From Okamejei kenojei (taxonomy: Eukaryota): 64,000 bases of DNA. The stretch covers positions 14,632,001 through 14,696,000 of the forward strand of contig CM069140.1 of the NCBI GenBank assembly GCA_035221665.1, given 5' to 3'. The notes under the pieces were generated by a model that saw only the letters and a program-made list of their open reading frames with translations, searched no databases and was not told where the DNA came from. Of this stretch, positions 1,443 to 49,615 are shown one piece after another. Both the position numbers and the translations under genes were made by a program. Every line of letters starts with the position of its first letter. Position 1 is the first letter of the stretch.

Positions 1443-1582
1443 GTACAGATGCGAGTGTGTACACAGCGGATACACAGGTCTGCACTGTGACATCCATGTC
1501 CCAAGCTGTCTTTCACATCCCTGCCTCAACGCCGCCACCTGCCAGGACATTGCTGGGAATTACATTTGTCACTGCCTGCCAG
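1443..1582 (+). CDS. CRB1: CRB1 internal exon (equivalent to human exon 4), EGF-like repeats
   Basis: ccag|G acceptor and CCAG|gtttgt donor; 140 nt, phase 2 in and 1 out. Encodes YRCECVHSGYTGLHCDIHVPSCLSHPCLNAATCQDIAGNYICHCLP with EGF cysteine spacing. Size matches human exon 4 as recalled. Confidence 0.9.
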
Positions 1583-4152: not shown

Positions 4153-4362
4153 TTAGTGAAAGATAAAGTCCAATTACAGACAGTTCATTGGTCTCCAATG
4201 AGGTAGATGGGAAGTCAGGACTGTTCTCTAGTTGGTGACAGGACGGTTCACAGCTGGGTACAAACTGTCCGTGAATCTGGAAGGTTCATTTAATTTTCAT
4301 TTGTGCCATTGTGCTGTCCAGATTGTGAAGGTGGATCTTATCTATGTGAGCATTTCCTCCAG

Positions 4363-4545
4363 GTTTTACGGGGCCACAGTGTGAGACGAATATCCAGGAG
4401 TGCAGCAGCAATCCATGTCTACACGGGGGGCAGTGTGTTGAACTCACCTGGCTGGAGGTGTATGGAAACGCCACCGACTTGCCTGCAGTCTCCAGCTCTG
4501 AGCGTGCTTCCGGCTACATCTGTAAATGCCCGCGTGGATTCACAG
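4363..4545 (+). CDS. CRB1: CRB1 exon 5, EGF-like repeat with the CRB1-typical loop insertion
   Basis: ttcctccag|GT to ACAG|gtaacc; 183 nt, phase 1/1. Translates [62 protein letters not shown], a frame absent from the supplied ORF track. Confidence 0.92.
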
Positions 4546-4764
4546 GTAACCTAAATGTCACCCAATTCTTCCCGCTGCCCCGCTGAGTTACTCCAGCTTT
4601 TTGTGTCTTTAAACCTGCATCTGCAGATCTTTCCTACACATATGGATATTATATATAACTATATGGGAAAATGCAAGGGAGGGAGAGATATGGATCATGT
4701 GCAGGCAGTGATTAGTTTGACTTGGCATTGTGTTCAGCACAGACAGTGTGGGCCTGTTCCTCAT

Positions 4765-5192
4765 CACATAATCTGATTATGGTAATAAATAGCCTTTAAT
4801 CTAAGATGCACTTCTGGAGGAACAACATTTTGAAACCTCTCCAGCAACGTATTTTTACAGCAATTGCAACCCAATATTTATCTGGTTTTTGTCAGTGACT
4901 TTAGCTGGAGTGGTGAGGGGAAGCATTACCAGGGCACAGCAGGGCACCATGTAAGCAAGGAGAGGGCTAATTCTTAAGCTCTGTTTTGCTGACCTGGTTG
5001 GCGAAGAATTGCCTGGTTAAATCGGTAATCATAACAGAGGAAGGAACGAAGTGTACAGTTAGGATACAAGTGAACGAAGACAGATGAACAACACACGGCA
5101 GGGGTTGAGGTGACATAAGCCTGAAGATCATTTAAAGGGCTTTTTTTTATAAAGAGTTCTGGTGCAGACCCTTTTAAATCCCACTTGAAGCA
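4765..5192 (+). promoter_or_regulatory. Putative photoreceptor promoter of the CRB1-B-like isoform
   Basis: Repeat-free stretch with K50-homeodomain (CRX/OTX)-type motifs TAATCT/TGATTA 4769-4779, TAATCT 4797, TAAGCT 4975 and TAAGCC 5116. AT-flanked Maf/NRL half-site TTTTGCTGAC 4984-4993. TATAAA 5148-5153. Motif matches only. Confidence 0.45.
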
Positions 5193-5241
5193 ATGGTGTT
5201 ATCCGTTCTTAAGGCGTCCGTCTTTATGATGGTCATCACAG
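5193..5241 (+). CDS. CRB1: Alternative first coding exon of a CRB1-B-like isoform (signal peptide)
   Basis: gcaATGG (good Kozak) MVLSVLKASVFMMVIT-G|gtaaat. The phase-1 donor joins exon 6 in frame (MMVITGSHCEV). Lies in intron 5, like the mammalian Crb1-B first exon. Confidence 0.75.
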
Positions 5242-7746: not shown

Positions 7747-8706
7747 GTTCCCACTGTGAGGTAGCTGTTGGCGAATGCGACTGGAATCCTTGTCGGAATG
7801 GAGGAACGTGCCAGAATGTGCAGGAGGGTTACATCTGCCTCTGCCCAGCAGGAAGTGGACAAGGTGTGTTCTTCGGAGGCCAGAACTGCACAGATATTCT
7901 GACTGGCTGTGAGAGCCACGAATGCCAGAACAAAGCAACATGCATCCCTCACCTGCTGGGTACACAACACAGGCACCGCTGCCTCTGTGCGAAGGGCTAC
8001 ACTGGCACAAACTGTCAACAATCGACCACCTTCTCTTTTGCGGTCAGCGGCTATCTTCGTTTTAAAACATCACCTGCCAGGAAAAGTGAGTCCGCGGCAA
8101 ACAGACCTCCCTATCGCATATTCCTGAGGTGTAGAACCATGCTGTCCAATGCCGTCATTTTCCACCGGGGGGACAGAGAAACATTCATGAAGTTGGAAGT
8201 ACTCGATGGGCATTTATCAGCCTCGCTGCACGTAAGGAACCAGCCACTTGCAACCCTCGAGATCTTCAAGGACGTGAGCGATGGGGAGTGGCACGCTGTG
8301 GAAGTGACTCTCAGCAGCCATTTTGCTGTCAAACTGCTGGATAGTTCCTGTGCTGGAGAATGCATGGCCCTGAAGCCTCTAGAGATGGCGAGTGGGCACT
8401 TTCCCTCTGCATTTGAAAGCACATCCTTTGGTGGCACGCGGGATGTCCATGGAGATTATCCAGGAGCGACCCAGCCCCAGACTTGGCCCCATTTTATCGG
8501 CTGCCTTCGGGACGTGACAGTGGAATGGAATGTGCTGGGGCTGGACGCTCCCGCGGCTGAGACGGCCCTGAATGTGCAGCCTGGTTGCAGCGAGAGTGAT
8601 CCATGCCAGACGGATCCGTGCCAAAGCAGGGGCCAATGTGTCGATTTGTTGGTAAATCACCGCTGTGATTGTTTCCGCCCATACGTCGGATTGAACTGTT
8701 CTGAAG
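7747..8706 (+). CDS. CRB1: CRB1 exon 6 (EGF repeats, laminin G-like 1, EGF)
   Basis: ttttcaag|GT to GAAG|gtaagt; 960 nt, phase 1/1. Includes ORF 7818-8714 with LamG motifs VSDGEWHAV and FIGCLRDV. Confidence 0.95.
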
Positions 8707-11459
8707 GTAAGTAGATCATAAGGTCATAAGTCACAGGAGTAGAATTAGGCCATTCGGCCCATCAAGTCTACTCTGCCATTCAATCACGGCTGTTCTCCCT
8801 CTCCTAACCCCATTCTCCTGCCTCCTCCCCATAACCTCTGACTCCCGTACTGCAAGGTAGTTCAAATAACTTTTTGAACTTGGGCCAGCTTTGGGCGGGC
8901 ACAGTGATGGAGTTGCTGCCTCGCAGCACCAGAGACTCAGGTTCAATCCTGACTACAGGTGCTGTCTGTACGGACTTTGCACGTTTTCCCTGTGACCGCG
9001 TGGGTGTTCCCCGGGTGCTCCGGTTGCCTCCCACACTCCAAAGATGTGCAGGTTTATAGATTGATTGGCATCTGTAAATTGTAAATTGTCCCTAGTGTGT
9101 AGGATAGAGCCAGTGTACTGGGTGATCGCTGGTCGGCACGGACTCAGTGGGCCGAAGGGCCTGTTTCCGCGCCGAAAGGCAAGAAAAACTCAATGGAAAA
9201 TTAGATGCAGTCGGCCAGAGGTCTGATCTTGGTGCCCTTGCGCTGAAGGTTGAAGATGCGATCTGCATGTTGGCTGCATTGCTGAGAAGCCCAAAGTGAA
9301 TCGGTCCCAACCCTCGAACAGTCTTGGAAGAAAGCACAGCTAGCGTGAATCTCCACTTTGGATTAGGTTTAGGTTTATTATTGTCACGTGTACCGAGATG
9401 CAGATAAAAGGCTTTTGTTGGCATGCTGTCCAGTCAAATCAGATAATACTATACATGAGTGCAATCCAGCCAAATATAGTGTCACTGCATTGGAGGGTAA
9501 CAGTTCCAGAGAAAATGTCCAATGTACACATTGAGGGTGAAGCCATCACTGAATTTAACATGTTTTTTATAATCTAAAATATTTAAAAGCTGTTATCGTT
9601 AACGCAAGTAATCAAAATTGTGAATGAAAAATTAGGCCAATTCATATACACAGTAATAGAACAGTACACATCAGTAGATGATCCTGTGTACCCTACATAT
9701 CCATATGCCTATGCAAAATCCGCTATCACATCTGCCTCAACCACCAACCCTGGCAGCACGTTCCAGGCATCCACCACCCTCTGTGTAAAAAAATAAAGTC
9801 AATTTTTTAATTGAATAAATTAAATTGTCAAAAGTCTCTTCGCATTCCCTTTGCCACCTTACTCCCAGGCTGAGAATGACCACTGAGCTGAATGGACAAC
9901 AGTGAATCAGCTGAAGATAGACACAAAAAGTTGGAGTAACTCAGCGGCTCAGGCAGCATCTCCGGAGAAACGGTACAGGTGACGTTTCGGGTTGAAACCC
10001 TTCTGAAGTTTGACCCAGTCTGAAGAAGGTCTCGACCCGAAATGTTACCTATTCCTTCTCTCCAGAGATGCTGTCCGACCCTCTGAGTTACTCCAGCTTC
10101 TTGTGTCTATCTTCAGGTTAAACCAGCGCCTGCAGTTCCTTCCCTCACAGTGAATCAGCCTCCTGTTTTACACCCTAGCACCAGGCCAGCACAGTGCTGG
10201 GATCTCCCAGCACACTGTTCCACCATTAAACTCCACGTGGAGTTCAACAGCAGAGTGCAGCGACAGAGGTGGGGGGCATCTGACACTCAGTGAGTCTAGA
10301 TGTCTAGTATGTGCACATATATTGGGGACTGACTTCTCATTTCAGCAGTTTTCCTCTGAAACATCAGGGGCAGTGTTGTAAGATTAACCCTGTGTTTCTG
10401 AAGTGCATTAATGACAAAACGTTAACATCAATAGTAGAAACAAAGAACTGCAGATCCGCTGAGTTAATTCAGCATTTTGTGTACTCTAACAAAAACAAAC
10501 CAGGTTACAAGTAACAGCTAGACATGTTTCACATTTTAAAATTTAAATGTATAAATTTTGAATTGAAAACTCCATTTGCCAGTGCAGTCCCTTTACTATA
10601 AGTATATTAGTTTGCAAAACCTTTAGCCATTATTTGCATCTCCATTTTAACATTGATATCTGAATTAAACAGGTGTGATGCAACTCTTGTTTAGTTTGCT
10701 GCATGATATGTTGGAATATGATTCAGCCTTCTGTTGCCGGCCCTGTTTTGTTCTGGCCTTTTCTTGCCTCCAGTTACCCCCATTACCGCCTACCCCCCTC
10801 CGCCCCCCCTCCCCACCTTTCAGTTTGAAGAAGGGTTACGACGTTTGGAGAAACGTCACCTCTTCCTTCTCTCCACAGATGCTGCCTGACCCGCTGAGTT
10901 ACTCCAGCACTTTGTGTCTATCTTCGGTATAAACCAGCATCGGCAGTTCCTTCCTACAGATGATTAAACTATTGACTGTGGGCAAAATGAGCAAGAGTGA
11001 AACATCTGCCTGTCTTAAACCCTTGGCCCAATATTCTCTCCCATTGATCCCAATTACAAGAAAAAAGTCAGACAGAATGCAAAGCAGATGTTGCTATGGT
11101 CTCATTGGTTTTGTTAAACCAGCATCTGTCCCATCGCTTAGTTATTCAGTTGGATTTTACTTAAATTTCTCTAATACAGGAACTCTTTATGTAGATAGAT
11201 ACAAAAAGCTGGAGTAACTCAGCGGGACAGGCAGCATCTCTGGATAGAAGCAATGGGTGATGTTTTGGGTCGAGACCCTTCTTCAGAACTTGATGTATAT
11301 TTTTTCAGCAAGAATGCCAGTCTGATTTGTATTGTGACAGTAATTATTGTTTGACGAGTGTAACTATGTACCAGAGAATGTACATAAGGTCTGTACCTCA
11401 TGCACACAACTCTGTACATGAGGTTGTAATCCAATTTCCCTTTTGTTTTTTTTTAACAG

Positions 11460-12010
11460 AATTAATCCCGGGTAGATTTGGCGCTGAAGATTCCAAAGGC
11501 TACGCTTTGTTTACCATTGATGACGATCCAGGAGAGGAAGTGAACATATCCATGTTTGTTCGCTCCCGCAAACCAAACGGTCTGTTACTGATGCTGAAGA
11601 ATAACGGCGTTCCGTACCTTTGGCTGGAGTTAGACGCTGGACATGTGGTGGCCCAATCTCCCCCGTCTCAACCTCTCGCCAGTAGTCACTCCATTACCAA
11701 CGGCGACTTCTATCTGATAACTGTGGAGATAAAACAAAACCAGATGAAGCTGGTCGAGGCGGGTCGAGTTGTAGGTCATGTTCCAATTCCCCCAGTTAGA
11801 GTGCAGGCTGGTGATGTGGCTTTGATCGGAGGTCTGCCAAATCAGACGGAACTTGCCCAAGACGCAAGTTACTTTGAAGGATGCATCCAGGATATAAAAA
11901 TCAACAACAAGAGACTTGAGTTTTATCCCGTCGGTGTCTCCGGGGAGTCTTACAGTAACAAGAAACTAGTAAATATAACAAGTGGCTGTGCTGGAAACAA
12001 TACCTGTCAG
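11460..12010 (+). CDS. CRB1: CRB1 exon 7 (laminin G-like 2)
   Basis: Poly-pyrimidine tract then aacag|A, ending CAG|gtacag; 551 nt, phase 1/0. Encodes ISMFVRSRKPNGLLL and YFEGCIQDIKIN. Confidence 0.93.
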
Positions 12011-12159
12011 GTACAGTATACAGACTGCAATTCACACCCTTATTACATAGAACAGAGAACAGTACAGCACAGGAATCGGCCCTTCCGTCACAATGTTTAT
12101 GCCAAACTTGATGCCAAGTTAAACTGATCTCATCGACCTGTCCATTTCCCTGCCTCCCT

Positions 12160-12575
12160 TCCATTGACTCCATCTACACTTCACGCTGCCTCGGCAAGGC
12201 CACCAGCATTGTCAAGGACGAGTCTCACCCCGGTCACTCCCTCTCTTCTGCCCTCTCCCATCAGGAAAGAGATGCAGAAGTGTGAAAGCGCACACCACCA
12301 GATTCAGGGACAGTTTCTTCACAGCTGTTATCAGGCAACTGAAGCGGCCCATCACTAACTGGAGAACAGTCCTGACCTACCATCTGTCTCATTGGAGACC
12401 CTTGGACTATATTTAATCGGACTTTACTGGACTTTATCTTGCACTAAACGTTATTCCCTCTATCCTGTACACTGTGGGTGGCTCAATTGTAACCATGTAT
12501 AGTCTTTCCACTGGATAGCACACAACAGAAAGGCTTTTCACTGTACTTCAGTACGCGTGACAATGAACTAAACTA
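12160..12575 (+). mobile_element. Rex1/L2-like LINE 3' fragment
   Basis: Translates SIYTSRCLGKATSIVKDESHPGHSLFCPLPSGKR...TTRFRDSFF. A second copy lies at about 15585-15975. Confidence 0.6.
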
Positions 12576-13274
12576 TAATTAAACTTCCATGTGCCTATCT
12601 AAAAGAATCATTGAATCTTTTTATCTACTTGGATAGAATGACAAACCTATTGTAACTAAAATCTCGGTGCAATACTATAATCTCAGAGTTTACTGGTAGC
12701 TGGCATGAAGATCATCTTAGACACTGAGTGCTGGAGTAACTCGGTGGGTCAGACAGCATCTCTGGAGAACACAGATAGGTGATGTTTTGGGTCTGGACTC
12801 TTCTTCAGACTTTCCCTGTCTAACAGGAAAACCTTTTCTTCATATTGATGCCTGTTCCATAATATACAGATACAATTTTTTTGTTTAGAAGGTAGACATT
12901 GTCGGTAAGGTAAAACATAGCACTTTAGTTTTGGAGAAACAGTTTGGAAGCGGGTCCTCTGGTCTACAGAGTCTGCTACGTCCAGTGATCACCCGTACCT
13001 CTATCCCGCAGATTAGGAACAACTCGCAAACCTGCTTATCTTTCGAATATTTGAGGAAACCAGAGCACCTGGAGAAAATCCACACAGGCACAGCAGGGAG
13101 AACTTACAAACTCCACACTGACAGCACCCGCTGTCAGGATTGAACCTTGGTCTCTGGCGCTGTAAGGCCGCAGTGCAGTGCCACTATTTTTGAACTGTTG
13201 GATGCAGTGTCTTTAAATTGAATCTGTGAGACGTAATTATGAATTTTGTAATCATTTTGTTTCTGCTTACCCAG

Positions 13275-13440
13275 TTCAGCCCTTGTTTGAATGGTGGGGT
13301 CTGCTCGTCCAGCTGGGATGGCTTTGTCTGCTCCTGCCCTCCGAGCACCTCTGGAAAAACCTGCAGCCTGGTGCAGTGGTGTCAGCTCGACCCTTGTCCG
13401 CAGGGTTCACAGTGCCACTGGATTGGAGATGGTTTTGATT
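13275..13440 (+). CDS. CRB1: CRB1 exon 8 (EGF repeats)
   Basis: cccag|TTC to GATT|gtgagt; 166 nt, phase 0/1. [55 protein letters not shown]. Confidence 0.93.
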
Positions 13441-16400
13441 GTGAGTGGGCAGCTTTCCAGTCTTCCCAACCCATGTGTTCTTGGAAAAGCTTCAGTGACA
13501 CTGCCGATCATCATAGAGTGAGGATTAAAGCCACGCTTTGAGAATTCCATCCATGCGGAAATATGATCCGCTAGTAACAAGGGCATCCTCATTGTAGATT
13601 GGATTGCTTGTCAATCTTGTGTGTTCCGCTCAATAACATCTTTTCTTTAGACTTTAGAGATACAGTGCCAATCAGCGATCACCCGGTACACTAGCACTAT
13701 CCTACACACGAGGAACAATTTACAATTTTACCAAACGACATTGACCGACAAACCTGCATGTCTTTGGAATGTGGGAGAAAACCAGAGCACCCGGAGAAAA
13801 CCCTTGCGGTCACGGGGAGAACGTACAGACATCACCCGTAGGGGAGAACTCCATACAGACATCACCCGTAGTCAGGATCGAACCCGGGTCTCTGGCGCTG
13901 TGAGGCAGCAACTCTGTGCCCCTGTGCTGCCCAAACAAGTCGGTGTTTCCACAAGAGGTCTCTGGGCATCCTGCTTCCTGAAATGGGATAGACTTGAAAT
14001 TATTTCAGGCATTTTGAAAAAACTCTTAAGACATGGAGAATGCCTTCAGGCATTGGAAAGCACTGTCAGGCATTGGAGGGCCACCTGGACAAGGGGTTTC
14101 CAGTTGCCACATCTGCCCTGGAACTTGCCCTGGCCCATTGCTTAGCTTTAGAACATGCAACAGTACAGCACAGGGACAGGCCCTCTCGGCCCACAAAGTC
14201 TGATCCGAACATGCTGCCAAGACCAACACCAACTGCACATAATCCATATTCCACCAGATCCACGTGCCGATCTTTTAAACGCCACTATCACATCTGCTTT
14301 CAACACCACCCCCCCCCCCGCAGCGTGTTCCAGGCCCTCACCACCCTCCGGGTAAAACAAAATTAGCCCCGTGCACCTTTAAACTTTAAACTTTACCCCC
14401 CTCAGCTTAAAGCAATGCCGTCTAGTATTTGTGAAGTGTAAAATGTTGGCACAGCAGTGAGCATCATAGTAATTGTACAACACAGTTGTCCACAAAATTA
14501 AACGAGCAGCAAAACACCTCCTCTGGGAGATACTCGTGTAGATCCAAACATGGAGTCTGGACAAGCTCAGATGTGCACACAGTGACTGGGGCATAATTGT
14601 ATCTAAGATGGACACAGAATTCTGGAGTAACTCAGTGAGTCAGGCAGCATCTCTGGAGACAAGGAATGGGTGACGTTTCAGGTTGCAACCCATCTTCAGG
14701 CTGAATGTCACCTATTCCTTTTCTCCAGAGATGCTGCCTGACCCGCTAAGTTACTCCAGCATTTTGTGCGTATCTTTGGTATAAACCAGCATCTGCAGTT
14801 CTTTCCTACGCATAATTGTATCAGTTCCCCTCGTCCCCTCCCAGATGTGTTGTCCAAACCTGCTAACTATTGGAGGATACAAAAGAATTACAAACTTCTG
14901 AATTTTATGAGAGCAGTATTAATAAATAATGATTTAAACCACAAAATCAATGTTGATAAGACACCTAAATATATTTTTAAAAAAATGCAACTTTATGCCC
15001 ACCATTGGGAATTACAGCCTTGAGTACCATATTTCCTCAAAGTGTTGTATCTTGAACAGCCCTATACCATGGGTTGAACAGACTGGTGCAAAGTAACCGT
15101 ATAAAGTTGACAATTGTGGTTTTTGATATATTTGCAGCAAAATCAAAGATGTTAACCAGAATTAGCTTATTTAGGACCTCTATATCTAGTGAATGTTATA
15201 CCTAGTAGATGGACTTAACTGAACAATCCACACAATCTGCAAGGTTAACTTTAAGATAGATTAGCCTTAAAGTTATTCTTGGAGTCAGGCATTCTTATAC
15301 ATCTGTTGCACTACTGTGAAATCAGGATTAATTGATCATTTATATTCCCGGCCAGTAGCCTCTGGCTTATTTGTAGAAAACCTCTAAAATAATAACAATT
15401 AGATTGTTAGAAACCTGCATGTGACAATGATATTTTTGGTTACAGAACTGAAATCGTCCAAAATGTAATGTCGTACATGATATACAGTAGCATGATATTA
15501 GCATATAATGGGATTCATAGTGGTATCACTGTCTTCATTGATAAATAAAATACAGCACGGAAACAGGCCCTTCGGCCCACCTCCCTTCCATCTACACTTC
15601 ATGCTGCCTCAGCAAGGCCAGCAGCATAATCAAGGATGAGTCACACCCGGCCACTCCCTCTTCTCCCCTCTCCCATCGGGCAAGAGGTATAGAAGTGTGA
15701 AAATGCACACTTCCAGAATTAGGGATAGTTTCTTCCCAGCCATTATCAGATAACTGAACCATCCTACCAACAACTAGAGAGCAGTCCTGAACTTGTATCC
15801 ACCTCATTTTGGTGACCCTGTACTGCCGTTATCTTGCACTAAACGTTATTCCCTTATGATGTACCTTGAATCACTATGAATGGCTTGATTGTAATCATGT
15901 ATTGTCTTACCGCTGACTGGATAGCATGGAACAAAAGCTTTTTACTGTACCTCAGTACATGTGACCATAAACCTAACTAAATGAGTCCACGCTGGCCATC
16001 GATCACCCCTCACACTAGGTTAATGTTATCCCATTTCACATCTACTCCCTACACAGTAGGGGCAGAGGCCAATTAACTCTGAATGCTTCTTTGCTGACAA
16101 TATTATGATGTCTTAAGTAAATGCATTTGCTCCAATTAATGATTAACTAATTACTGGAGGGGTTCAACATACTGTACCAGTTTCAAGCTTTGTGAAGTCC
16201 AGATACGCTAGGAGGGGGGTGGCTTCAGAACTCGTTCCATTGAGCAAACAATCGTGCGAGATATGTTTTTAAAGTACATCTGTGCAACTTCACACGTGTC
16301 GATGTTTGTAAAGTAAACTTAAAATTCAGTGCCCTGTAGATGTGCATACTACAGATGCTGGAATTTGGTGAAGAAAGGTTACAAGATACCCTGCAGCAAT

Positions 16401-18217
16401 GACCAACGTAATATTCAGAAAATGATCAGAATTACACATGTATTGAAAAGCTTCCATCTGCATGTACTTACCATTATTTTCTAGTATAATTCTCTTGTGC
16501 ACATTGATAATGGAAAGTGCCTCTACGTGCATCAGGTTGTGAACGTGGTGGCAGTCCACTGCTAGAACCATATAGTTACAAAGTTCATCAGAGTTCATCA
16601 TTATTAGTGCAAAGGGCTAAATTGGTGTGGGCCCAGTGTCTCTGTGGACATTGTTACTCACAGTTGCAGAACAGCCAACACTTACCCTGGGCGAAACAGA
16701 CACAAAGTTCTGGAGTAACTCAGTGGGTCAGGCAGCATCTCTCTAGAACATGGTTAGGTAACGTTTCGGGTCGGGACCCTTGTTCAGGCTATCCACGGAC
16801 GAGGGCATTGATCTCACTGGCCTCTGCAGCTTGGAGTTGTGTAGTGAAGCCCAGATACTAAATAAGCCTCAGATGAATTGCAGAGATAGCCCCACCTTCA
16901 CTGCCCATAGTCGCCAAGGAAATTTAGAAACAATGGTTGAAGATCTCTAAATTTAAAAAAAATAATAAGTAAAAACATTTTTAAATTATTTTAAAACATT
17001 GAACTAAAGTTGTAAAATACAAAAGGACACAAAGTGCTGGAGCAACTCAGCAGGTCAAGCAGCCTATCTGGAGAACATGAACAGGTAATGTTTCGGTTCG
17101 AGACCCTTCTTCAGACTGGGAGAAGCTAACGTTAGTTAACTTTAAAAATAACCAGCCTTCCCTTCTGCCTCCTCATTTATTTGGTAAGAATTTCCACTAA
17201 AGTAAATTCAAATCATAGAATTCAACAATAAATCTATCCATCATCATTTTATCCCAGCCCTTCGGCCCAACTTGCCCATGCTGACCAACATGCCCCATCT
17301 ACACTAGTCCCACCTGCCTAGTGTTTAGCCAACATCCCTCTAAATTTCTCCTATCCATGTACCTGTCTAAACGTTTCTTAAACCTTGTAATTGTACATGC
17401 CTCAACTATCTCCTCTGGCAACTCTTTCCATACACCTATCACCCTCTGTGTACAAAAAGTTGCCCCTCAGGTTTCTATTAAATCTTTTCCCCCCTCAGCT
17501 TAAACCCACGTCCTCTGGTTCTCGATTCCCCTACCCTGGGAAAAAGACCCGATCTTTTCCTTTCATGATTTTGTACACCTACACAAGATCACCCATTTCC
17601 CTCGAAACCTATCCTATCCATGTACCAGTCCAAATGTTTCTAAATTTCCATATCCCCTACAATCAAAATGTGGATTACAGAAATGTCGGAGACACTTCAC
17701 CTGGAACGATTAAGACTTGTCCTAATGGACAGGTTAGATCAATTCAGAGGAATATGGTCTCCATTTATTGAATATTTAAAGGGTTAAGATGGTCCGGTTC
17801 GAGGCCATGACTGAAGCCTGAATGAAGGAATCGATGAAGAATTATATACAATAGATCATGAATATATCTCCAATGAAGAATATCTTGTTTAATACTCCAC
17901 TCATTTTATTTATCTCTTTTTTATTTCTCTTTCTCTTTATTACCTATCTCTATTTCCTACTGTTATAAAATTAAAAAAAAATATAGAAGTATAAATAAGA
18001 TTGACTGTAAATTTTAAAAATATTAAGAATGTATGTGACGATAAGATTTTCTTTTTCTTTGATTTTATATTATTTCTTCTTAATATGTAATTACTTCTAA
18101 TAAAAAATATTTTACAAATGTTTCTTAAACATTCTGAAATATTTTATCCTCGTAAAGAATGCTGAAATTATCAGTGTAAGCCTCGGGTAACATTGCTTCC
18201 TCTTGTGTTAATTGCAG

Positions 18218-19109
18218 GCCTTGTTCGTGCCACATTCAACGGAGAGCAAAGCTTGACATTCAGAGGGAATGGCAAAATTAAGCGGGATCTCACCAACATT
18301 ACTTTCAGCGTTCGAACGAAGGAATCGAACGCTGTCCTGCTCCATGCAGTGAAGGAGCAAGACTTCATCACCATCGGCATCCAGCAGTGCCATCTCATAT
18401 TGATGATAGGTGGCGGCAACCTGAGTCTCCTCAGCTCAAAGCCAATAAGCGATGGTGTCTGGCATGATGTTACTCTGCACATGACCCACCCCTCGCTTCA
18501 GCATTCCACATGGCAGATGGAGGTCGACCAGACGGGCGGGACTGTGACCAGTCACTCCGCCAACGGGAACCTGAACTTCCTGAGAGAGGGAGCAGACATT
18601 AACCTGGGCTCTGGGGGCTCGGAGAAAGCAGGCAGCTTCAGAGGTTGCTTGAACACCATGAGACTGGGTGGGATCTCCTTGCCGTACCTTGCGACCGATA
18701 GCGTGCACATTGCCAGACCGCAGCAGGAACAGTTTATACAACCGTCCTTCACCAGCGTATCGCGGGGCTGCCCCGGGGAGAGTATTTGTGCATCCGATCC
18801 GTGTGCAAACAATGGCCACTGCGAGGACATGGTCAGTTACTACCAGTGCAGGTGCCCGACTGGCTGGACAGGCAACAATTGCGAAGAGGACATTGATGAA
18901 TGCTGGTCGAGTCCTTGCATCCATGGCCGTTGCACGGACCGAGTCTCTGCGTATCGGTGTTCCTGCCTGCCGGGCTACACCGGCACCAATTGTGAAGTGA
19001 ACATCGACAACTGCCCAATGCACAGGTGTGCCAACGGAGCTACCTGTATCGATGCCATAGACGGTTACTCGTGCAGGTGCACAAGTAACTTCACTGGGAG
19101 ATTCTGTGA
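18218..19109 (+). CDS. CRB1: CRB1 exon 9 (laminin G-like 3 and Ca-binding EGF repeats)
   Basis: ttgcag|GC to GA|gtaagt; 892 nt, phase 1/2. Encodes ISDGVWHDV, FRGCL, DIDEC and NIDNC motifs. Confidence 0.95.
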
Positions 19110-20849
19110 GTAAGTAAACTTTAGACTTTATTTAGACTTTAGAGATGCAAGGCTAAAGGAACAGACCCTTCAGCCCACCGAGTCCATGATGACCCACGAT
19201 CACCCCGTACACTGGCACCATCCCACACCCTCGGGATAATTTTACAATTTACAGAAGCCAATTGTAGATTGGATTAGTTGTGAATCTTGTGTGCTCTACT
19301 TAATAAAATATTTTCTTCAGACTTTACGCATACACATTTACGCGGAAACAGGCACTTCTGCCCGTTGAGCGCAGGTGAACCAGCAATCTCCCCTACACTA
19401 GCACCATCCTACACACTAGGGGCAATGTACAGAAACCAATTAAGCTGCAAACCTGCATGTCTTTGGAGTGTGGGGGGAACCGGAGCTCCTGGAGGAAACC
19501 CACGCGGTCGCAGGGAGAAAGCCTTTTCAGGTAGAAAGTAGTGGTGATCTGGAGCTCACTGTCTGTAAGGGCAATAAGCTTTCCAGAGGGAATTTTGAAG
19601 GAAAATAACTTTAAGTGCCAAGGCAAAAAGAGCCAGGCAACGGGACTGAGAAGTCTGCTGTGCTATCGACTCAACGGGCCAAATGGCTGCCGTGTACACC
19701 ATTATTATTGATCCTATGAGTTATTTGTTGATTTAAGAAAAACATGCTCAAACTTGCGAAATACGGTCCCTCTCGTGGGCAGGAAATCTGCTCTTGGAGG
19801 CACATCAGGTCAGTAACAGACTTTTTGATGGAACAAATATTGTGAGATCTTGGGCAGACATCCCAAGTCAATTCCCTGTAAGTCGGGGGTCAAAGCAAAT
19901 GTGAAAATAATTGGGATGTGCACAGTCTTACTGTACCTTGTCCCAGGCACCAATTCTGCCTGCACCTTCACACTGATATTTCATGCCTCATAAAATGACT
20001 GCAAGTGGGTGCAACCCAATTTTACAACCCGCTGGAACACAAAGTGCTGGAAGAACTCAGTGGGTCGGGCAGCATCTGTGGAGGGAATGGACAGATGACG
20101 TTTTGAGTCAGAACCCTTCTTCACACCTGCTCCAAGATGGCACGGAAGCCAGGTGATCCGTGTGTGTGTGGTGGTCCCATAAGTAGATCTGCAATCATTC
20201 ATAACAATCATTCCACTCTTTCAAATCTTTATTTCAACATTACTCATTCCTTACTAACTATGTTCTTCTTAATCTACTGGACTTTATTCCCTTTATCCTG
20301 TATCTACACTCTCGACAGTTTGGTTGTAATCATGTATAGTCTTTGTGCTGACTGGCTTTCACTGTAGCTCGCTACACGTGACTATGATACACTAAACAAA
20401 ACTCTTAATTGGTTGCTATTTCTTTGCATCTTAGTTGACTGGGCTATTAATAATTGATCTCTGGGGATATTAAATAATCTTAAATAAGCTAAAAAACTAT
20501 GTTAAAGATTTTACTATTTTCATGAACATTTAAAAGATTCTTAATATAGTGTAAAATGTTTTTGAGGGAAATGAGTGATGCCTATTTGAAATATAATCAC
20601 AAACCTTTGAATTATTAATAACGTATAGAGAGAGCAAATTAACAGTTATCATATGATTGCTATATAAGCTTGACACTGAAATATTCCAAGCATTGTTTGA
20701 TCTTAGACGCTGAACAGTCTGTTCTAGATATCACAACAATACTTGCATAACAATTCAGGCTTTCTGAAGACTATTTTCTCTTTTAAAATGCCTGACAGTA
20801 GTATCTATAAATGATTCACAACTTGAAACCCATGACGAAATGTGTAGGA

Positions 20850-21360
20850 AGGAACTGCAGATTCTGGTTTAAAGCGAAGATAGACACAAAAAGCTGGAGT
20901 AACTCAACAGGTCAGACAGCATCTCTGGAGAAAAGGGAAAAAGAATAAGTGATGTTCTGGGTCGAGACCCTTTTTCAGACTGAGGGTCAAAGGTGGTATA
21001 GAGAGATATAGAACAAATGAATGAAAGATATGCAAAAAAGTAACGATGATTAAGGAAACAGGCCATTGTTAGCTGTGGGCAATGGAACTCAACAAGACGA
21101 CTATGAAACCAGTACGACTTGGGTGTGGGAGGGATGGAGAGAGAGGGGATGTAAGGGTTACTTGAAGTTAGTGAAATCATTTTCACACCACTGGGTTGTA
21201 AGCTGCCCAAGTGAAATATGAAATGCTGTTTCTCCAATTTACGTTTGGCCTCCCTCTGACAGTGGAAGAGGCCCAAGACAGAAAGGTCAGTGTGGGAATG
21301 GGAAGGGGAATTAAAGTGTTTGGCAACCGTGAGATCAGGTAGGCGCAGGCGGACTGAGCG
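20850..21360 (-). mobile_element. Penelope-like element 3' fragment
   Basis: VAKHFNSPSHSHTDLSVLGLFHCQREAKRKLEKQHFIFHLGSLQPSG followed by the same terminal repeat. Confidence 0.7.
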
Positions 21361-21752
21361 AAGGAAACCCATGACGTTCACTTTTGCATTACACAATGTA
21401 ATCATTGTTTTTGATTTAAAGATACAGCGTGGAAACAGGCCCACCACGTCCACACTTTCCATCGATCACCCGTCCACACTGGTTCCACGTTATCCCACTC
21501 TCGCTCCCGCACCCTACACACAAAGGGCAATTTGCATTTAATTTAGAGACACAGCACGGAAACAGGCCCTTCGGCCCAAGGGGACCCCACCGACCATCGA
21601 TCACCCGTACGCACTAATTTTATGTTTCAACATTCCTTCTGAAAGCAGGAATGCAAAGGGGGTGAAGAGACTTGACATGTAACTGTGCCAAAATGGTTCC
21701 TCTGCCTATAGAGGTCAATAATTAATAGAAAATTAATATCCTGTTGTCATAG

Positions 21753-21878
21753 ATATCTGAGATTATCTATTACTTCCTGCAATGATGTGAAGACAAATTG
21801 GACATGTTACAATGGAGGCAACTGTTCCAAGGAGAGGAACAGCAGCTGTACCTGCCCTGTAGGATTCACTGGAAGCCA
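21753..21878 (+). CDS. CRB1: CRB1 exon 10 (EGF repeat)
   Basis: tcatag|A to CA|gtaagt; 126 nt, phase 2/2. YLRLSITSCNDVKTNWTCYNGGNCSKERNSSCTCPVGFTGS, not in the ORF track. Confidence 0.9.
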
Positions 21879-22797
21879 GTAAGTGAAACACAGATTACAT
21901 GTGGTATATTCTGATTGACTCCGTACCAATGGGGGGTGGTGCTCAGAGATGAAACGTTTTCTTGCAGGTAACAGTGGAAGAACAGACAGACAAACCTTTG
22001 AGTACAATGCATTCCAGACTGTTCTACATATAGTGATTTGAACAAAACCACAATGTATGATGAGCGTTTGACGGCACTAGTCCTGTACTCGCTGGAGTTT
22101 AGAAGGATTGGGGGGGGGGGGGGGGGGGGACACCTCATTGAAACTTACTGAATAGTGAAAGGCCTGGATAGAGTGGAAACGGAGAGGATGTTTCCACTAG
22201 TGGGAGAGTCTAGGACCAGGGGGCGTAGCCTCAGAATTAAACTACCTTTAGAAAGGAGATAAGGAGGAATTCCTTTAGCCAGAGGGTGATGAATTCTGCG
22301 GAATTCATTGCCACAGACGGCTGTGGAGGCCAAGCCAATGGTATTTTCTAAAGTGGGGATTGACAGATTCCTGATTAATAAGTGTGCCAAAGGTTATGGG
22401 GATAAGGCAGGAGAATGGGTTTGAGAGGGAAAGATAGATCAGCCATGATTGAATGGTCATGTAGAATTGACGGCCAAATGGCCTAATTCTGCTCCTATGA
22501 ATTATGAACATGATCCAAATCAAGATCAATATAGACAGGCACCTAGATAAACTATAACAGCACAAGATAGATTTAAACAAATTAAATCAAAACCGATTCG
22601 GGACTTATGACAATAAAACCCTCTCGACAATTAAAGGAAGATCATCACCATATGAAGAGACAGTATAAAATCATGATCATCAATGCTATTTTTTGGTGGA
22701 CAAAAAGTTGCTGGTCTGCATCAATTAAAAAATTATTTTCAATATGTTTTTTTTTTGCATAATTGTATTTGCATCATCCTCCCCACATCCATTCTAA

Positions 22798-24055: not shown

Positions 24056-24182
24056 ATGCGAAATGAACATTGACGAATGTGCATCGAGCCCTTGTCTTAA
24101 CGGAGGCTTCTGCCAAAACCTGCCCCACCGGTTCCAGTGCATTTGTGACATGAACTTCGCCGGCGACCACTGCGAGTTTGAT
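24056..24182 (+). CDS. CRB1: CRB1 exon 11 (last EGF repeat), spliced form
   Basis: ttgcag|A to GAT|gtaagc; 127 nt, phase 2/0. [42 protein letters not shown]. Confidence 0.93.
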
Positions 24183-24293
24183 GTAAGCGACCTCTCCTTT
24201 TTCATCTCTTTATTACTCTGGCAGAACCTGTTCCAACTTCTTTCCTACCTCGTTCTGCGAATGGATGACGAGCCAGCAGTGGAATGGGCTTGA
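24183..24293 (+). CDS. CRB1: Exon 11 read-through extension: CRB1-B-type transmembrane segment and short tail
   Basis: In-frame continuation [36 protein letters not shown], closely resembling the mammalian CRB1-B C-terminus as recalled. AATAAA at 24541. Confidence 0.85.
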
Positions 24294-34744: not shown

Positions 34745-35136
34745 CCTTGCAGTCGGTGACGCCACAGGTTTCAGCCCTGCCTCTGCTCAGGTGTGGCAGT
34801 AACTTGACACCTGAGCCAGGTATCGGGTGGGTTCTGACAGAAATCGCTGGTTTTCAAAACTCACAGACAGAAACTAGCAGTCAAACCGGAAGCAGGGCTC
34901 AACGCAGAGAGGAGGAATATGTTCAAAAGAAGATCCAATGTCTTATGATTCTGAATAATCAACCACGCAGCTAAAGAACCAGGCATTAGTACGCTGCTGG
35001 CGTGCAGGTAACTCGTCACGCTGAACTGCAAGGTTCCTGTTGAAGGGTTTTAAGTTCCCCAGGACCGATCCCTTCAGAAATATTGCTCTAAACTTTGTGG
35101 ACTGGATTTTGAGCTGTGTAGCTATGGACTCGTAGG
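34745..35136 (+). promoter_or_regulatory. Putative promoter/5'UTR of the nested CRB3-like unit
   Basis: Repeat-free, locally GC/CpG-richer segment upstream of ATG 35137. TGACGC 34757; GRHL-like ACAGGTTT 34764; E/Z-boxes CAGGTG 34788, CACCTG 34808, CAGGTA 34817 and 35005; GGGTGGG 34825; ETS ACCGGAAG 34885. Confidence 0.45.
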
Positions 35137-35218
35137 ATGGAAGAACGATTTCTCCCTGGTTGTGGTTGGCTACTGGCCACATTACTTCTGCTGAAGGAAG
35201 GAGTTTTGCTCACACAAG
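35137..35218 (+). CDS. Nested CRB3-like unit, coding exon 1 (signal peptide)
   Basis: aggATGG strong Kozak. MEERFLPGCGWLLATLLLLKEGVLLTQ plus G|gtaatg; 82 nt, phase 1. Hydrophobic core typical of a signal peptide. Confidence 0.72.
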
Positions 35219-41317: not shown

Positions 41318-41370
41318 CAGTGAATGTAACAGACTCTACACCTACAACGAATGCTGCTAACACATCAACA
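41318..41370 (+). CDS. Nested CRB3-like unit, coding exon 2 (short Ser/Thr-rich glycosylated stalk)
   Basis: ttcctttacag|CA to ACA|gtaagt (consensus donor); 53 nt, phase 1/0. (A)VNVTDSTPTTNAANTST with NVT and NTS sequons. Bridges the flanking exons in frame. Confidence 0.75.
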
Positions 41371-41482
41371 GTAAGTTGATAGATTTCAATTGACCTAATC
41401 TTAATATGGACGGTGGGTTCAGCCTAAGTCTGCTTCTAAGGAACACTCTGCAGAGGATTGAGTTAAAAACTGTTTCGGGTTA

Positions 41483-44334: not shown

Positions 44335-44559
44335 GCAACCCCCCCGCCAGCTAGCAGAGTTAACATTGCAGCCATAGTGGCTCCCTGTGTCATTGGTGGG
44401 GTGATCGTTTTAGCTATCATTCTGACTGTTCTAATCTTGAAGCTACGCGAGAAGCGTCAGACTGAAGGGAACTACAGCCCAAGCAACCAGGAGCAGACTG
44501 GATCCCGGATGGAGATGAACAACGCCCTAAAACTCCCACCCGAGGAACGTCTGATCTGA
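44335..44559 (+). CDS. CRB3/CRB2-type transmembrane and cytoplasmic terminal exon (FERM-binding motif, ERLI PDZ motif)
   Basis: Branch point ctctaat then gttttcacag|GCA, phase 0. [74 protein letters not shown]. Confidence 0.9.
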
Positions 44560-44746
44560 TGTGTTCAACTTAGGGGTCAATGTTGGAAGAAGTCAACAGA
44601 CCCCAGGTATTCCTTGTGCTACCCAACAATTTGGGATTAAAGAAAAACTGTGAAGCTCTGTGCATTTCTTTAAACCAAGGCAACTTCCAAAACGAACCCC
44701 CAACGCGGGTCGTCCATAAATGTGTAACTGTTTTGACTCTTAGCAG

Positions 44747-44962
44747 GATGTTGGTGCTTGGAGCTCAGAGATTGTGCCCTACACAGGGCTGGTCGTCGCC
44801 ATGCTGTCGCTGACCCTGTTTCTCGTCCTCGCCGCCACCGTCCTCGCCCTGAGCAGGAGAGCAACGCACGGAGCCTACAGTCCGAGCCGGCAGGAGAAAG
44901 AAGGGTCACGTGCGGAGATGTGGAACTTGGTGCCACCACCACAGGTGGAAAGGCTTATCTGA
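44747..44962 (+). CDS. CRB1: CRB1 canonical terminal exon 12 (TM and cytoplasmic tail, ERLI)
   Basis: tagcag|GAT, phase 0 (alternative AG at 44743). DVGAWSSEIVPYTGLVVAMLSLTLFLVLAATVLALSRRATHGAYSPSRQEKEGSRAEMWNLVPPPQVERLI*. The SRQEKEGSRxEMWNL string is diagnostic of CRB1. Confidence 0.93.
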   Translation, partial: DVGAWSSEIVPYTGLVVAMLSLTLFLVLAATVLALSRRATHGAYSPSRQEKEGSRAEMWNLVPPPQVERLI

Positions 44963-46724
44963 GGGGGCCTTGGCCAACACGTCCCACGGTTTGTTGGCAC
45001 ATCACTGCCCATGCCTAGGCTGAGCACCATCCCTTGCTGCGTCCCACAAATACTGCTTTAACAGGTATTGAACACTTGCCTTGCATTCACTCAAGTGGGT
45101 CACACCAGCCAAGCCCACCTTTATTACTAATATCCAACAGCCCCTTAGATGGTGCTGGTGAACTGTCTTCTTAAACCCTGAGCAGTCAACACAGTGATAA
45201 TACCCTCACAGTGCAGTTAAATGGGAGGTTAAATGGGGCAAAACTGTGGCGTGGAGTTCGAGCTGCTGCCTCACAATGCCAGAGCCCTGGGTTTGATCTT
45301 AACTCTGGGATGCTGCCTGTATGGAGTTTGTACATTCTCCCTGTGACCTTATGGGTTTCCTCCAATGCTCTGGTTTCCTCCCACATCTCAAAGCCATACA
45401 GGTTTGCAAGTTAATTGGCTACTGTTCCAGCTTCGATCAAATTTAATCTGTCTATTGCCCAAATACTTAAGAACACTCAGAGCTATAGTAACTCAGCAGG
45501 TCAGGCAGCATCTCTAGAGAACATGGATCAGCGATTTTTCAGGCCGGGACCCTTCTTAGCTATGCTTGAAGAAATGTCCTGACCCAAAATGTTATCTATG
45601 TGTGTGTTTTGTTGTAAACCAGCATCTGCAAATCCTTGTGTCTACTTAAAAATACTATTAATAATTGCTCTTCCTTTCCACAAAGCTGTCGACAGAAATT
45701 AGATCACAATGCTAATATGTAAGTTATGTGAATACAGAATGTACACAAATACAGGAATAAGCTATGAAATTGGACGGTTCAGCCAAGGCAAAATGTTTGC
45801 GTACCGATAACTCGTAACTTAGGGGTGCCTCTAAGTTATGAAAGAGCAAATCGCAAACTGCTGGAGGAACTTGCTGGGTCTGGCAACATCTGTCAATGGA
45901 ATGAACGGGCGACATTTCAGGTCGGGACCCTTCCTCTAACCAATGAAGTTGGATTCCAACCCAAAAAGTCGTCAGTCTATTCCCTGCACAGATTACCTCC
46001 ACAGATACTGCCTGACCTGCTGAGTTCCTCCAGCACATTGCATTTTTCTCAAGATTCCAGCATCTGCAGTACCTTGTGGCTCAGCTGTTAAGAAGGAATA
46101 AGATGGTCAGAAATGGAGCTTCCAATTCCTCCATGTGGAGTAGAATTGAATCTAAGGCATTTAAGCTGGGGAAGATGCTAAAACTGTTAGCATTTCTGTG
46201 GTTACAGAAACTTGGAGGTTTTGTGCTACAGCAGAGATTTTCAGTGTAACTTGCCCAAGACCAGTCAAACCAGAGGCAAACTATGACAGAATTATGTTAT
46301 GGTTAGTGCAATTTGTTCCTGTGATTTTTTAAATTGTTTTAAAATTAAGATGGAAGATGGGAGATTATAGTTCTGCCAACAAGCATTAACTTGAGTGTAA
46401 ACATGAGAAAGTTAAAATCTCAATCCTGTTACTATACAATACAATACCGTTTATTGTCATTTGAACCTCATTGAGGTTCAAACGAAATTTGGTTTCTGCA
46501 GTCGTACAAACAAGAAAAGAACCAAGACACAACGCAATTGACACAAACATCCACCACAGTGAATCTCCTCCTCACTGTATTTCAGCTGGACAGGGTGGTC
46601 ACTTTTCTGTGTTTTTTGTCATTGTTCCAGGTTCAGATTCTTTCCAGAGTCTCTCTCAGTGCCCAGTCACAGTTCTGGGTGCTTTCAACACCAGCAGCAG
46701 ACACCTCAGCCCTCTGGAAGAGAG

Positions 46725-46834
46725 AGTGTGTGCATGTGTGCTTGCAAACCTGTGTGTGCAGCGCCTGACTGTGTCTGTGTTTGTGAGTCTGTGTCTAAGT
46801 GTGAGTCTATGAGTGTGAGATGTGGTGCTGTGTG

Positions 46835-46867
<33 letters not shown>

Positions 46868-46915
46868 CTGAATGCGTGTGTCTGTGCCTGAGTGTGTGAG
46901 TGTGTGTCTGTGTAC
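46725..46915. repeat. Degenerate (GT)n microsatellite
   Basis: tgtgtg tracts. Confidence 0.85.
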
Positions 46916-49561
46916 CTGTAAAGCTGGGTGCAGGCTGAAATGTGGATGGATGTTGAAGCTACCACTTTTCCTGCCAAGTGGTTCTGAATTAAAATTAGTT
47001 ATAAAATCAGTAGAAACATTGGCTAAATGTTTGTATAACTACTACAAGTGTCGCAAAGCACAGACATATATAACATTTTTGGATCTGATGACACGAGCCA
47101 TTGTCCCAGATATATAAATGAGCCACTAGTTTCAAATGAATTCCATGATGGAATCAAGCTGAGTAGTAGCTCAACCTCACGGCCACACTAACAGAATGGT
47201 CACCCCATCACATGTCCCTCTTTTCAAGCACTCGTGAGAAACTGAAATTTGTTTTCACGTATTGGGACAGGTCATTAGAATTGTTGAATGGAATGAGATT
47301 TCGGCCCGAAACGTTGCCTATTTCCTTCGCTCCATAGATGCTGGTGCACCCGCTGAGTTTCTCCAGCACTTTTGTCTACCTGAAATTAATAGTCGCAGGT
47401 TAACCCTCTGATCTCCTTCTTCGCTGTACAAATATTTCAAATCGAATGCAAGTTCAAAGTAGCACAATGAATTAATGCACAATCAATTGATTATTTTGTA
47501 AGGCTCAACAAGTAAAGTATTATGTGGCAGAATTGCAAAAACAAAAAGCATCTAAACCGTGGTTATCATTCTTCAATATTTTCTGAATTTTGATTTGTTA
47601 CGATGCACAGCATGGGAAAAGTTACTGTCAGAGTTAAACGTCAAGTCCCCACAGAGATTCTGTCACCAGCAATGGTCACTGGGAGTAAATAGCAGAAGTG
47701 TAAGAAAGATCTGCAGCTGCTGGTTTATACTGAAGATAGCCGGCTCAATATGCATACACTTAGAATGTCAATGGACTTGTTTTTAGTTGGGATTAATTCC
47801 AAATGTACATGTTTGTTTAAGATGATTGAGAAGGCTTTGGTGCGGATGGTATAATTAAAAATTAAGATAAATTATATACAGGGTTTCTAGCAGTTAACTA
47901 GACACAGAACAGACAATTCAATCCAACAGATCTACACTCCCTCATTGGTCTTACCCTCACAACATGCCTCTTTTATTTCTCCATACATCAATGTGCCTCA
48001 TTTCAATCTGGCCGCAAATTCCACAGTCTCACTTTTAAAATAAAGACATTTCCCTTGAATTAGAGTCCTAGAGTGATACAGCATGGTAACAAGCCCTTTG
48101 GCCCAACTTGTCCATCTTGACCAACATGCCCCATCTCCACAAGTCCCACCTTCCTGCGTTTGGCACATATCCCTCTAATCCTATCCTATCGATGTACCTG
48201 TCTAAATATTTCTGAAAGGTTGCGATAGTACCTGCCTCAACTACCTCCTCCAGCACCTTGTTCCATACACCCACCATCCTCTGTGTAAAAAGGTTACCCC
48301 TCAGGTTCCCATTAAATCTCCCCCCCCCCCCACCTTAAATCCTCTGGTTCCCGATTCCCCAACTCTGGGGAAGAAACTGTGCATTTATCCGATCTATTCC
48401 TCATTCTTATTCCTCAGTAAATTCTTAGGTGAATGTGTTACAGTATGTTAAGTTCCACAGGTTTTGGACTGGTCAGAAATTGAAATACCATTATACTGAA
48501 GACTATTATATTTTTTAAATGCACTCTCTGTGCACTTGTCTCCCACTTTTCCCTTTTCACAACAAGTATGTCCTCTCTGTTCATCCCTTCTGGTAGCGAC
48601 ATCCTCCAATATTTTAGGTCAACCTGATGAAGCCCGCTTGTAGGGACAGGCTGAAGAAGACACAGAGTGCTGGTGTAACTCTGTGGGTCAGGCAGCATCT
48701 GTGGAGAACATGGATAGGTGGCGTTTCGGATCAGGACATTTCTTCAGACTGAAGAAGGGTCTCGACACAAAACATTGCCGATCCATGTACTCCAGGCATG
48801 CTGCCTGACCCACTGAGGTCCTCCAGAACTCTGTGTCTTTTTTTGTAAACCACCATCTGCAGTTCCTTGTTTCTACAAAAGGACGAGCTGTCAGGTTATC
48901 AGGGCAAAATAATTTGAAAGTTCAAGACCTCAATGTACATTGTGATCATAGAAACATAGAAAATAGGTGCAGGAGTAGGCCATTCGGCCCTTCGAGCCAG
49001 CACCACCATTTAATATGATCATGGCTGATCATCCAAAATCAGTACCCCGTTTGTGCTTTCTCCCCATATCCCTTGATTCCCTTAACCCTGAGCTCTATCG
49101 AACTCTTTCTTGAAAACGTCCAGTGAATTGGTCTCCACTGCCTTCTGTGGCAGAGAATTCCACAGATGCACAACTCACTGGGTGAAAACGTTTTTCCTCA
49201 TCTCAGTCTTAAATGGCCTGCCCCTTATTCTTAAACTGTGACTCCTGGTTCTGGACTCCCCCAACATCGGGAACATTTTTCCTGCATCTAGCCTGTCCAA
49301 TCTCTTAAGAATTTTATATGTGATAATCAATTTTGTATCAATTGACACCAGAAGGAAATCCAGATGTTCAGCTTCACTGAGTGCCAATTGTCTTGAGAGT
49401 TTTGTTTGTAATATGTCTGCAACAAATGTGCCGAAACGATACTGTACATTACATATTTTAGAAAGCTGTTTCAACTTTGGATTTGATTTGATTTTTAAAA
49501 CAAAATGTAGAGCATTTTTGGATGTAGATATTTGATGTTTAGAGCAATTTAAATGACTGTA

Positions 49562-49615
49562 AATAAATTGTGAATCAGAATAAACTGTTTCTCCAGTGAA
49601 TGTTTTTCGTTGCTC
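49562..49615 (+). terminator. Candidate polyadenylation signals for CRB1/CRB3-like transcripts
   Basis: Two AATAAA hexamers (about 49562 and 49578) followed by a GT/T-rich tract, at the end of an AT-rich non-repeat stretch. Confidence 0.35.

Follow-up and report, generated by a model that had tools for sequence, protein, structure and literature searches.

The 64,000-nucleotide stretch of DNA analysed here (the window) contains the 3' portion of the CRB1 gene from a cartilaginous fish, Okamejei kenojei, on C10 (14632001-14696000). What had been proposed as a short alternative ectodomain is a complete unit inside CRB1 intron 11, resembling CRB3 and made of a signal exon, a stalk exon and a last exon, T1, that codes for a transmembrane segment (TM) and a tail ending in ERLI. 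Directly behind it stands a second exon of this kind, T2, which is CRB1's own exon 12. The feature is real, conserved and expressed, and it is of interest mainly for what it suggests about Crumbs evolution. The best explanation overall, which we hold to be fairly probable, is a single locus where promoters of two kinds feed into a composite 3' end, a layout that would have an ancestral origin. The features are as follows.

1438..21879, + strand: upstream CRB1 ectodomain exons (EGF, laminin-G), found by tblastn with shark and chimaera CRB1 proteins at 56-67% identity
1438-1587, 4359-4553, 7740-8705, 11459-12013, 13272-13487, 18220-19110 and 21751-21879, + strand: approximate tblastn bounds of these ectodomain exons
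24056..24182, + strand: CRB1 exon 11, last EGF repeat, phase-0 donor after 24182
24183..24293, + strand: exon-11 read-through, a TM and tail of CRB1-B type, from the sequence, the mouse B tail end and a Mustelus RefSeq model
34799..35218, + strand: first exon of the nested unit, 5'UTR and signal peptide, from contigs of three studies
41318..41370, + strand: stalk exon, 53 nt, rich in S/T/N, phase 1 in and phase 0 out, matching ray short proteins at 48-82%
44335..44559, + strand: T1, CRB3-type TM and 37-aa tail (GNY, ERLI), proximal acceptor, phase 0, open
44560..44746, + strand: spacer of 187 nt with ATTAAA at 44636, spanned by a contig in all four runs
44747..44962, + strand: T2, CRB1 exon 12, TM and tail (GAY, ERLI), distal acceptor, phase 0, open
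44963..49600, + strand: probable shared long 3'UTR, with patchy contig tiling and AATAAA at 49562 and 49579

The host gene has the hallmarks of CRB1: EGF and laminin-G exons that match CRB1, a RAT-type ERLI tail and the CRB1-B read-through tail. The shark CRB1 orthologue likewise carries Pfam EGF and Laminin_G domains. DENN exons lie 110-130 kb downstream of the window CRB1 on the opposite strand; they may belong to DENND1B, the neighbour of CRB1 in human synteny. The end of the read-through tail matches the mouse CRB1-B end, quoted as RMNDEPVVEWGAQENY in the accessible part of PMC7335077, and the Mustelus RefSeq model P0085 has the B tail as well. Between two CRB1 exons, at window 5193-5241, there is an ATG-initiated hydrophobic ORF of 16 codons with a phase-1 GTAAAT donor. 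No other candidate of this kind lies in 4560-7735, and the ORF may represent the first exon of CRB1-B.

T1 begins at 44335, behind the acceptor ttttcacag, and its frame is open to the stop at 44557-44559. T2 has a NAGNAG acceptor, giving a start at 44744 or 44747, and is open to the stop at 44960-44962, ending in PPPQVERLI; among the long models with T2 the distal AG is chosen in five cases out of six and the proximal AG in one. The original prediction of two intact TM and ERLI exons less than 200 bp apart, one of CRB2/3 type and one of CRB1 type, both with phase-0 acceptors, is borne out in full. The distance between T1 and T2 is 187 nt, T1 is of CRB3 type while T2 is CRB1 exon 12, and with the donors of exon 11 (after 24182) and of the stalk (after 41370) also in phase 0, all four donor-tail joins are in frame. 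The exon pair is not due to chance, because both members are conserved across chondrichthyans: over its last 37 residues T1 is identical at 33-36 of 37 positions to each of the 14 proteins compared from sharks, rays and chimaera, and T2 at 28-34 of 37 to each of seven. The four coding differences in the read table (among 40 listed of 1083 differences) are synonymous. In Crumbs tails the GxY and ERLI motifs recruit FERM and PALS1/Par6 partners; since T1 and T2 both keep these motifs, both should do so. Pfam returned no Crumbs tail family, all matches lying below its cut-off.

The signal exon of the nested unit has its ATG at 35137, 82 coding nt and a phase-1 donor after 35218. It is covered by contigs from three studies, which start at 34799, 34839 or 34840 and reach 35216-35218. 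This points to an internal promoter just upstream of ~34800, where 34799 is the 5' limit of the contigs rather than a mapped start site. The contigs are Logan contigs from four of the 17 listed runs, three studies in all, mapped to 34200-50300, so that exon 11 falls outside and none of these contigs shows a junction from it. The runs are taken as RNA by guess, no listed run being recorded as RNA and two of them (X1 and X4) being flagged as probably DNA; the contigs themselves are paths through a graph, not single molecules, and rare variants are dropped from them. Their joint table, with a span limit of 20 kb that the distance from exon 11 to T2 exceeds, lists 15 of 4313 joints and, like the loose-end table, is filled by repeats.

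One X1 contig, 1438 nt long, aligns to 34840-35216, continues with 56 unplaced nt and then aligns to 44336-45340. The 56 nt equal 2+53+1, the stalk plus unaligned edges, a match by length and not by letters, and a contig from X6 joins the signal exon to T1 with 60 nt between them where 63 are expected. Because the X1 contig skips 9.1 kb between canonical splice sites, it is best read as spliced cDNA. In a protein search T1 finds 'crumbs homolog 3-like' proteins of 118-121 aa at 84-91% identity, and proteins with the short ectodomain and T1 are annotated in eight chondrichthyan species; in Mustelus and Hemiscyllium the contig with the short model has the same length as the contig with the long one. 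The signal and stalk exons of the window are closest to their ray counterparts. That the short form with T1 is expressed we regard as practically certain. A candidate donor at 35008 within the signal exon was rejected, as it is unused in all three contigs that cover it.

The unit has the features of a CRB3-type protein, namely a signal peptide and a short ectodomain (the ray orthologue P0004 has no EGF or LamG), followed by a TM and a 37-aa tail with GxY and a C-terminal ERLI. Its exon layout, with a signal exon (phase 1), a stalk (phase 0) and a TM-tail exon, is also that of CRB3, the comparison being with a stalk candidate from the CRB3 gene on C36 that is not transcript-checked. Going by sequence, the product is predicted to localise apically and to bind PALS1, Par6 and FERM partners.

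The original prediction had offered the ATTAAA at 44636 as a terminator for T1, with the fallback that the T1 3'UTR would otherwise contain CRB1 exon 12. The contigs speak against the terminator and in favour of the fallback. A contig crosses the ATTAAA in all four runs, so the two tail exons do not have a separate poly(A) site each, and in three of the four runs the contigs continue through all of T2, X4 and X5 being among the runs that cross it, while that of X6 ends at 44757. The 3'UTR of the short transcript therefore appears to contain CRB1 exon 12, a conclusion that we consider very likely to hold, and this makes T1 and T2 the proximal and distal acceptors of one terminal block. The spacer is then 3'UTR in T1 transcripts and the end of an intron in T2 transcripts. 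The ATTAAA may still be used in part, which is compatible with contigs that drop rare forms. Further downstream, 45340-48671 is largely tiled by contig pieces of 370-660 nt, with discontinuous coverage and with repeats present, and one X5 contig ends at 49593, a single end that points weakly to a poly(A) position near 49600.

Searching the genome with T1 yields two further Crumbs loci, C33 and C36. C33 holds a long CRB2 with a T1-like tail. On C36 there is a short stand-alone CRB3 that has a DENN gene of its own as a neighbour, and the 100 kb around this CRB3 contain no EGF exon. Because a separate short CRB3 gene thus exists on C36, the nested unit on C10 is a paralogue of CRB3 and not its orthologue. 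In the CRB3 on C36 the signal exon is of phase 1, and the best of five stalk candidates from the scan is 53 nt long and of phase 0. Its signal exon is found twice, at 4263104 and 4254784 (minus strand), 8.3 kb apart; the copies are identical over the exon and near-identical upstream, and either a duplication in place or an error in the assembly may account for them. All three Crumbs loci have a DENN exon opposite them in tail-to-tail orientation, and linkage of Crb2 and Dennd1a is documented in the accessible part of PMC3100342.

Behind the equivalent donor of CRB2 on C33 lies a frameshifted B-tail remnant (10093586-10093474, minus strand), which scores 56, whereas 2000 shuffles averaged 22 and peaked at 51. 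This remnant suggests that the B isoform is older than the split between CRB1 and CRB2. In the 100 kb around CRB2 there is no T2-type exon or short-unit remnant, and no T2 remnant was found near CRB3. The last intron of CRB2 contains one weak signal-like ORF.

A profile search across vertebrates extends the comparison. The best 150 of its 441 matches include a 'crumbs homolog 2-like' model from Petromyzon, which is long, and a pair of unnamed proteins of 131 aa with signal peptides. The last 76 residues of the long model match those of the two short proteins at 74 of 76 positions, as for a terminal exon that they share. A hagfish 'crumbs homolog 3' has a cysteine-containing stalk similar to that of the two short proteins. 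Placement of the lamprey ectodomain gives no decision between CRB1 and CRB2. In teleosts, the Megalops model P0145 consists of an N-terminal hydrophobic stretch, a stalk-like part, a T1-like part and then T2, and the Periophthalmus 'crumbs homolog 3b' model P0232 has a T1-like start and a T2 end; both of these, which are gene models and not genomic DNA, we read as probable mis-joined models of the same tandem layout. In the accessible part of PMC5676222, crb3a and crb3b are treated as subfunctionalised duplicates, crb3b being strong in the digestive system. The fused models hint that the teleost crb3b may be the nested unit and need not have arisen from crb3a by duplication in teleosts. The Sarcophilus 'crumbs homolog 3-like' protein P0157 is a second, divergent CRB3-like protein in a marsupial; it resembles marsupial CRB3 and was not accepted as an orthologue of the nested unit.

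Tail trees were built from 52 and from 50 rows over 67 columns, the second without two long rows (the T1 part of P0145, and P0193). With support of 98/95 and 99/95, they separate T1, CRB2, CRB3 and the cyclostome tails from T2 and ten long Crumbs proteins that are unnamed, where the ten are taken as invertebrate from their length. With the root placed among these ten proteins, the split between T1 and T2 predates the duplications that gave CRB1, CRB2 and CRB3. Within the first group T1 is sister to the CRB3 and cyclostome tails, on the same 67 columns: the joint clade stands at 93/93, with the CRB3 plus cyclostome branch at 91/89, and reaches 98/94 in the 50-row tree. An unnamed Logan protein, P0212, has a T2-type tail at the base of all T2 rows (99/94) and could show T2 outside jawed vertebrates.

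A natural reading is that the CRB1 layout in the window would be the remainder of a pre-duplication vertebrate Crumbs locus, from which CRB2 would have kept the long form with a T1-type tail, CRB3 the short form with a T1-type tail, and mammalian CRB1 the long form with T2 and B. It draws on the DENN exons opposite all three loci, the exon phases of the CRB3 on C36, the B-tail remnant of CRB2, the last exon shared by the long lamprey model and the two short proteins, the fused teleost models and the tail trees. We favour this ancestral-layout origin over other origins and put its chances a little above even, which is short of demonstration. The competing view takes the nested unit, or just T1, for a duplicate that arose later and in one lineage, whether by local copying of T2 or by translocation of CRB3. 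An AU test does not reject a clade of T1 with T2 (p 0.064 for 52 rows, p 0.13 with the two long rows removed), and a later duplicate would also sit well with 100 kb around CRB2 that lack a T2 or short-unit remnant and 100 kb around CRB3 that lack an EGF exon. However, T1 and T2 have just 20 of 37 tail residues in common, the tree branches place T1 with the CRB3 and cyclostome tails (98/94), and the lamprey and teleost models have the same neighbourhoods. A later duplicate thus seems unlikely to us.

The ancestral-layout reading is one part of the single-locus explanation, and the other part concerns how long transcripts choose their tails. A search for long proteins returned ten matches from 138 candidates; five of them are long CRB1 models ending in T1, all from sharks or a chimaera, with no batoid long model ending in T1 among the ten. 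The clusters of these long T1 models list 41 members, 30 of them long. Exon 11 is joined directly to T1 in 11 of these 30 annotated models, from seven shark species, and the remaining long models end in T2 (6), in the B tail (1), in QRM or RRI followed by a stop (4), in T1 reached by odd routes (3) or in other ways (5). Four species, namely Scyliorhinus canicula, Cetorhinus maximus, Chiloscyllium plagiosum and C. punctatum, are annotated with a T1 form as well as a T2 form, and the catshark long models with T1 carry several different N-termini (isoforms X1, X3, X4 and X5). This evidence is shark annotation, not reads and not Okamejei kenojei, and given the likeness of T1 to the CRB2 tail, the models that join exon 11 to T1 could have been guided by homology.

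The ends in QRM or RRI and a stop, from four shark RefSeq models in four species, correspond to the stalk exon entered in phase 0, and thus out of frame. For each stalk start 16 of 8000 tripeptides fit, and two of the four comparisons used the stalk of another species. Because such joins have no protein template, they suggest that long transcripts splice into the nested exons. In the window, the join of 24182 to 41318 adds a single residue and then meets a stop, which lies 47 nt upstream of the last junction. A stop about this close to the last junction is near the usual boundary for decay, and splicing from 24182 to 41318 might possibly give a secreted full ectodomain. Taken together, we think that long transcripts ending in T1 are probably real in sharks, and lean towards their being real in Okamejei kenojei.

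A plainer account would treat the unit simply as a nested gene, a CRB3 paralogue in intron 11 for which only the uncrossed junctions matter, with the long T1 models being driven by homology or reflecting splicing noise. Such an account agrees with annotation in several species, where the short unit is a gene apart under the name 'crumbs homolog 3-like', with the X1 contig running unbroken past the T1 and T2 acceptors, and with the lack of a batoid long T1 model among the matches. It fits poorly with long T1 models that use the exact acceptor in seven species and have several N-termini in the catshark, or with the out-of-frame joins of exon 11 to the stalk in four species, which point to transcript support; moreover, contigs drop rare variants. 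We consider it rather unlikely that the plain nested gene is the whole account.

Under the single-locus explanation that we prefer, an internal promoter near 34800 in intron 11 would give a short CRB3-like mRNA of signal exon, stalk and T1, with a 3'UTR that runs through T2 and probably to ~49.6 kb, as contigs from relatives indicate for all but the 3' end. Long CRB1 pre-mRNAs would leave exon 11 in phase 0 by four routes, which are present in shark annotation and are extended here to Okamejei kenojei. Without a splice they would end in the B tail; with the distal acceptor, T2, they would give canonical CRB1-A; with the proximal acceptor, T1, they would combine the CRB1 ectodomain with a CRB2/3-type tail; and with the stalk acceptor, out of frame, they would give a truncated and probably secreted ectodomain. 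The short unit would take the first acceptor that it meets, T1, and rarely or never T2, to judge from the absence of such forms.

The original prediction of three cytoplasmic domains (T1, T2 and B) from one locus is thus supported by sequence and by shark annotation, whereas the four spliced products that were also foreseen fare unequally. The short form with T1 and the long form with T2 are supported, the long form with T1 is found in 11 of 30 long shark models, which is annotation only, and the short form with T2 was never found. In the search for this last form the five matches among eight candidates are all single-exon fragments and it is absent from all 41 cluster members listed, but the sensitivity is low, since short isoforms can sit under long cluster representatives (e.g. 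P0097). It is quite improbable that the short form with T2 is made in appreciable amounts. A full combinatorial system, in which the long or the short ectodomain takes either tail, with B in addition, could appeal to all joins being in frame and to three of the four having some support. Given that the short form with T2 appears in none of the five matches and none of the 41 cluster members, weak as that search is, and that the spliced contigs go to T1, such a system is very improbable. The original prediction is partly supported, with a picture of tail use that is asymmetric rather than a free two-by-two choice. A retrocopy origin of the nested unit is ruled out by its introns.

The nested unit resembles vertebrate CRB3, as represented by the shark 'crumbs homolog 3a' and by the gene on C36, in coding for ~120 aa with a signal peptide, a short S/T-rich stalk, a TM and an ERLI tail, in its intron phases, in the 53-nt length of the stalk candidate and in the grouping of the tails in trees. 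It differs from CRB3 in lying inside CRB1, in having a 3'UTR that includes CRB1 exon 12 and in a last exon that is apparently usable by long transcripts. The chondrichthyan RefSeq models ('protein crumbs homolog 3-like', 118 aa, and 'crumbs homolog 1 isoform X1/X2') are orthologous products, but they are automatic and come without interpretation, with the short form as a separate gene in some species and T1 as the main CRB1 tail in others. Human CRB3A and CRB3B differ in their tails by isoform choice. This pair and zebrafish crb2b each vary one end only, and neither is known to have two tandem TM and ERLI exons. In zebrafish crb2b, with its long and short forms (PMC7044448), it is ectodomain length that varies by isoform choice, as it does in the window locus. 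The CRB1-A, -B and -C isoforms (PMC7335077) are similar in that one locus with alternative promoters and 3' ends gives different intracellular domains, and the B tail is found here too; in the accessible part of that paper B lacks polarity motifs, and no second ERLI tail or CRB3-like short unit is described.

It is therefore already known that the products exist in public automatic annotation and that Crumbs genes switch promoters and tails (CRB1-A/B/C, PMC7335077). A nested CRB3-like unit, tandem ERLI exons or such an origin of CRB3 are not described in the literature searched, which included the accessible part of the review PMC11129452 and had subscription papers and supplements outside its scope. 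The broad reading is that a pre-duplication vertebrate Crumbs gene is preserved in the chondrichthyan CRB1 locus with its long ectodomain, B read-through, internal short promoter and tandem ERLI tails, that CRB1, CRB2 and CRB3 are three subsets of its isoforms, that CRB3 began as the short isoform, that crb3b may be the nested unit, and that sharks swap CRB1-type and CRB2/3-type tails on a single ectodomain through their choice of 3' splice site and make a secreted ectodomain via the stalk exon; as a whole we see it as evenly balanced between right and wrong.

If the layout is ancestral, it would show concretely how CRB3, the Crumbs protein of vertebrate epithelia that lacks the ectodomain, came about by partition of isoforms after duplication. 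It would also explain why the CRB2 tail is nearer to that of CRB3 than to that of CRB1, and would date the CRB1-B tail before the split of CRB1 and CRB2. Should the nested unit be what is called crb3b in teleosts, this gene and crb1 would share a locus, and 3' probes or lesions of crb1 in fish could affect both. For a gene involved in human retinal disease, the CRB1 locus would furthermore amount to a tail swap carried out by nature.

The introns of the window (24742-26176, 39093-39693 and others) are rich in short repeats and in decayed fragments of LINE-like reverse transcriptases, which is ordinary for this lineage.
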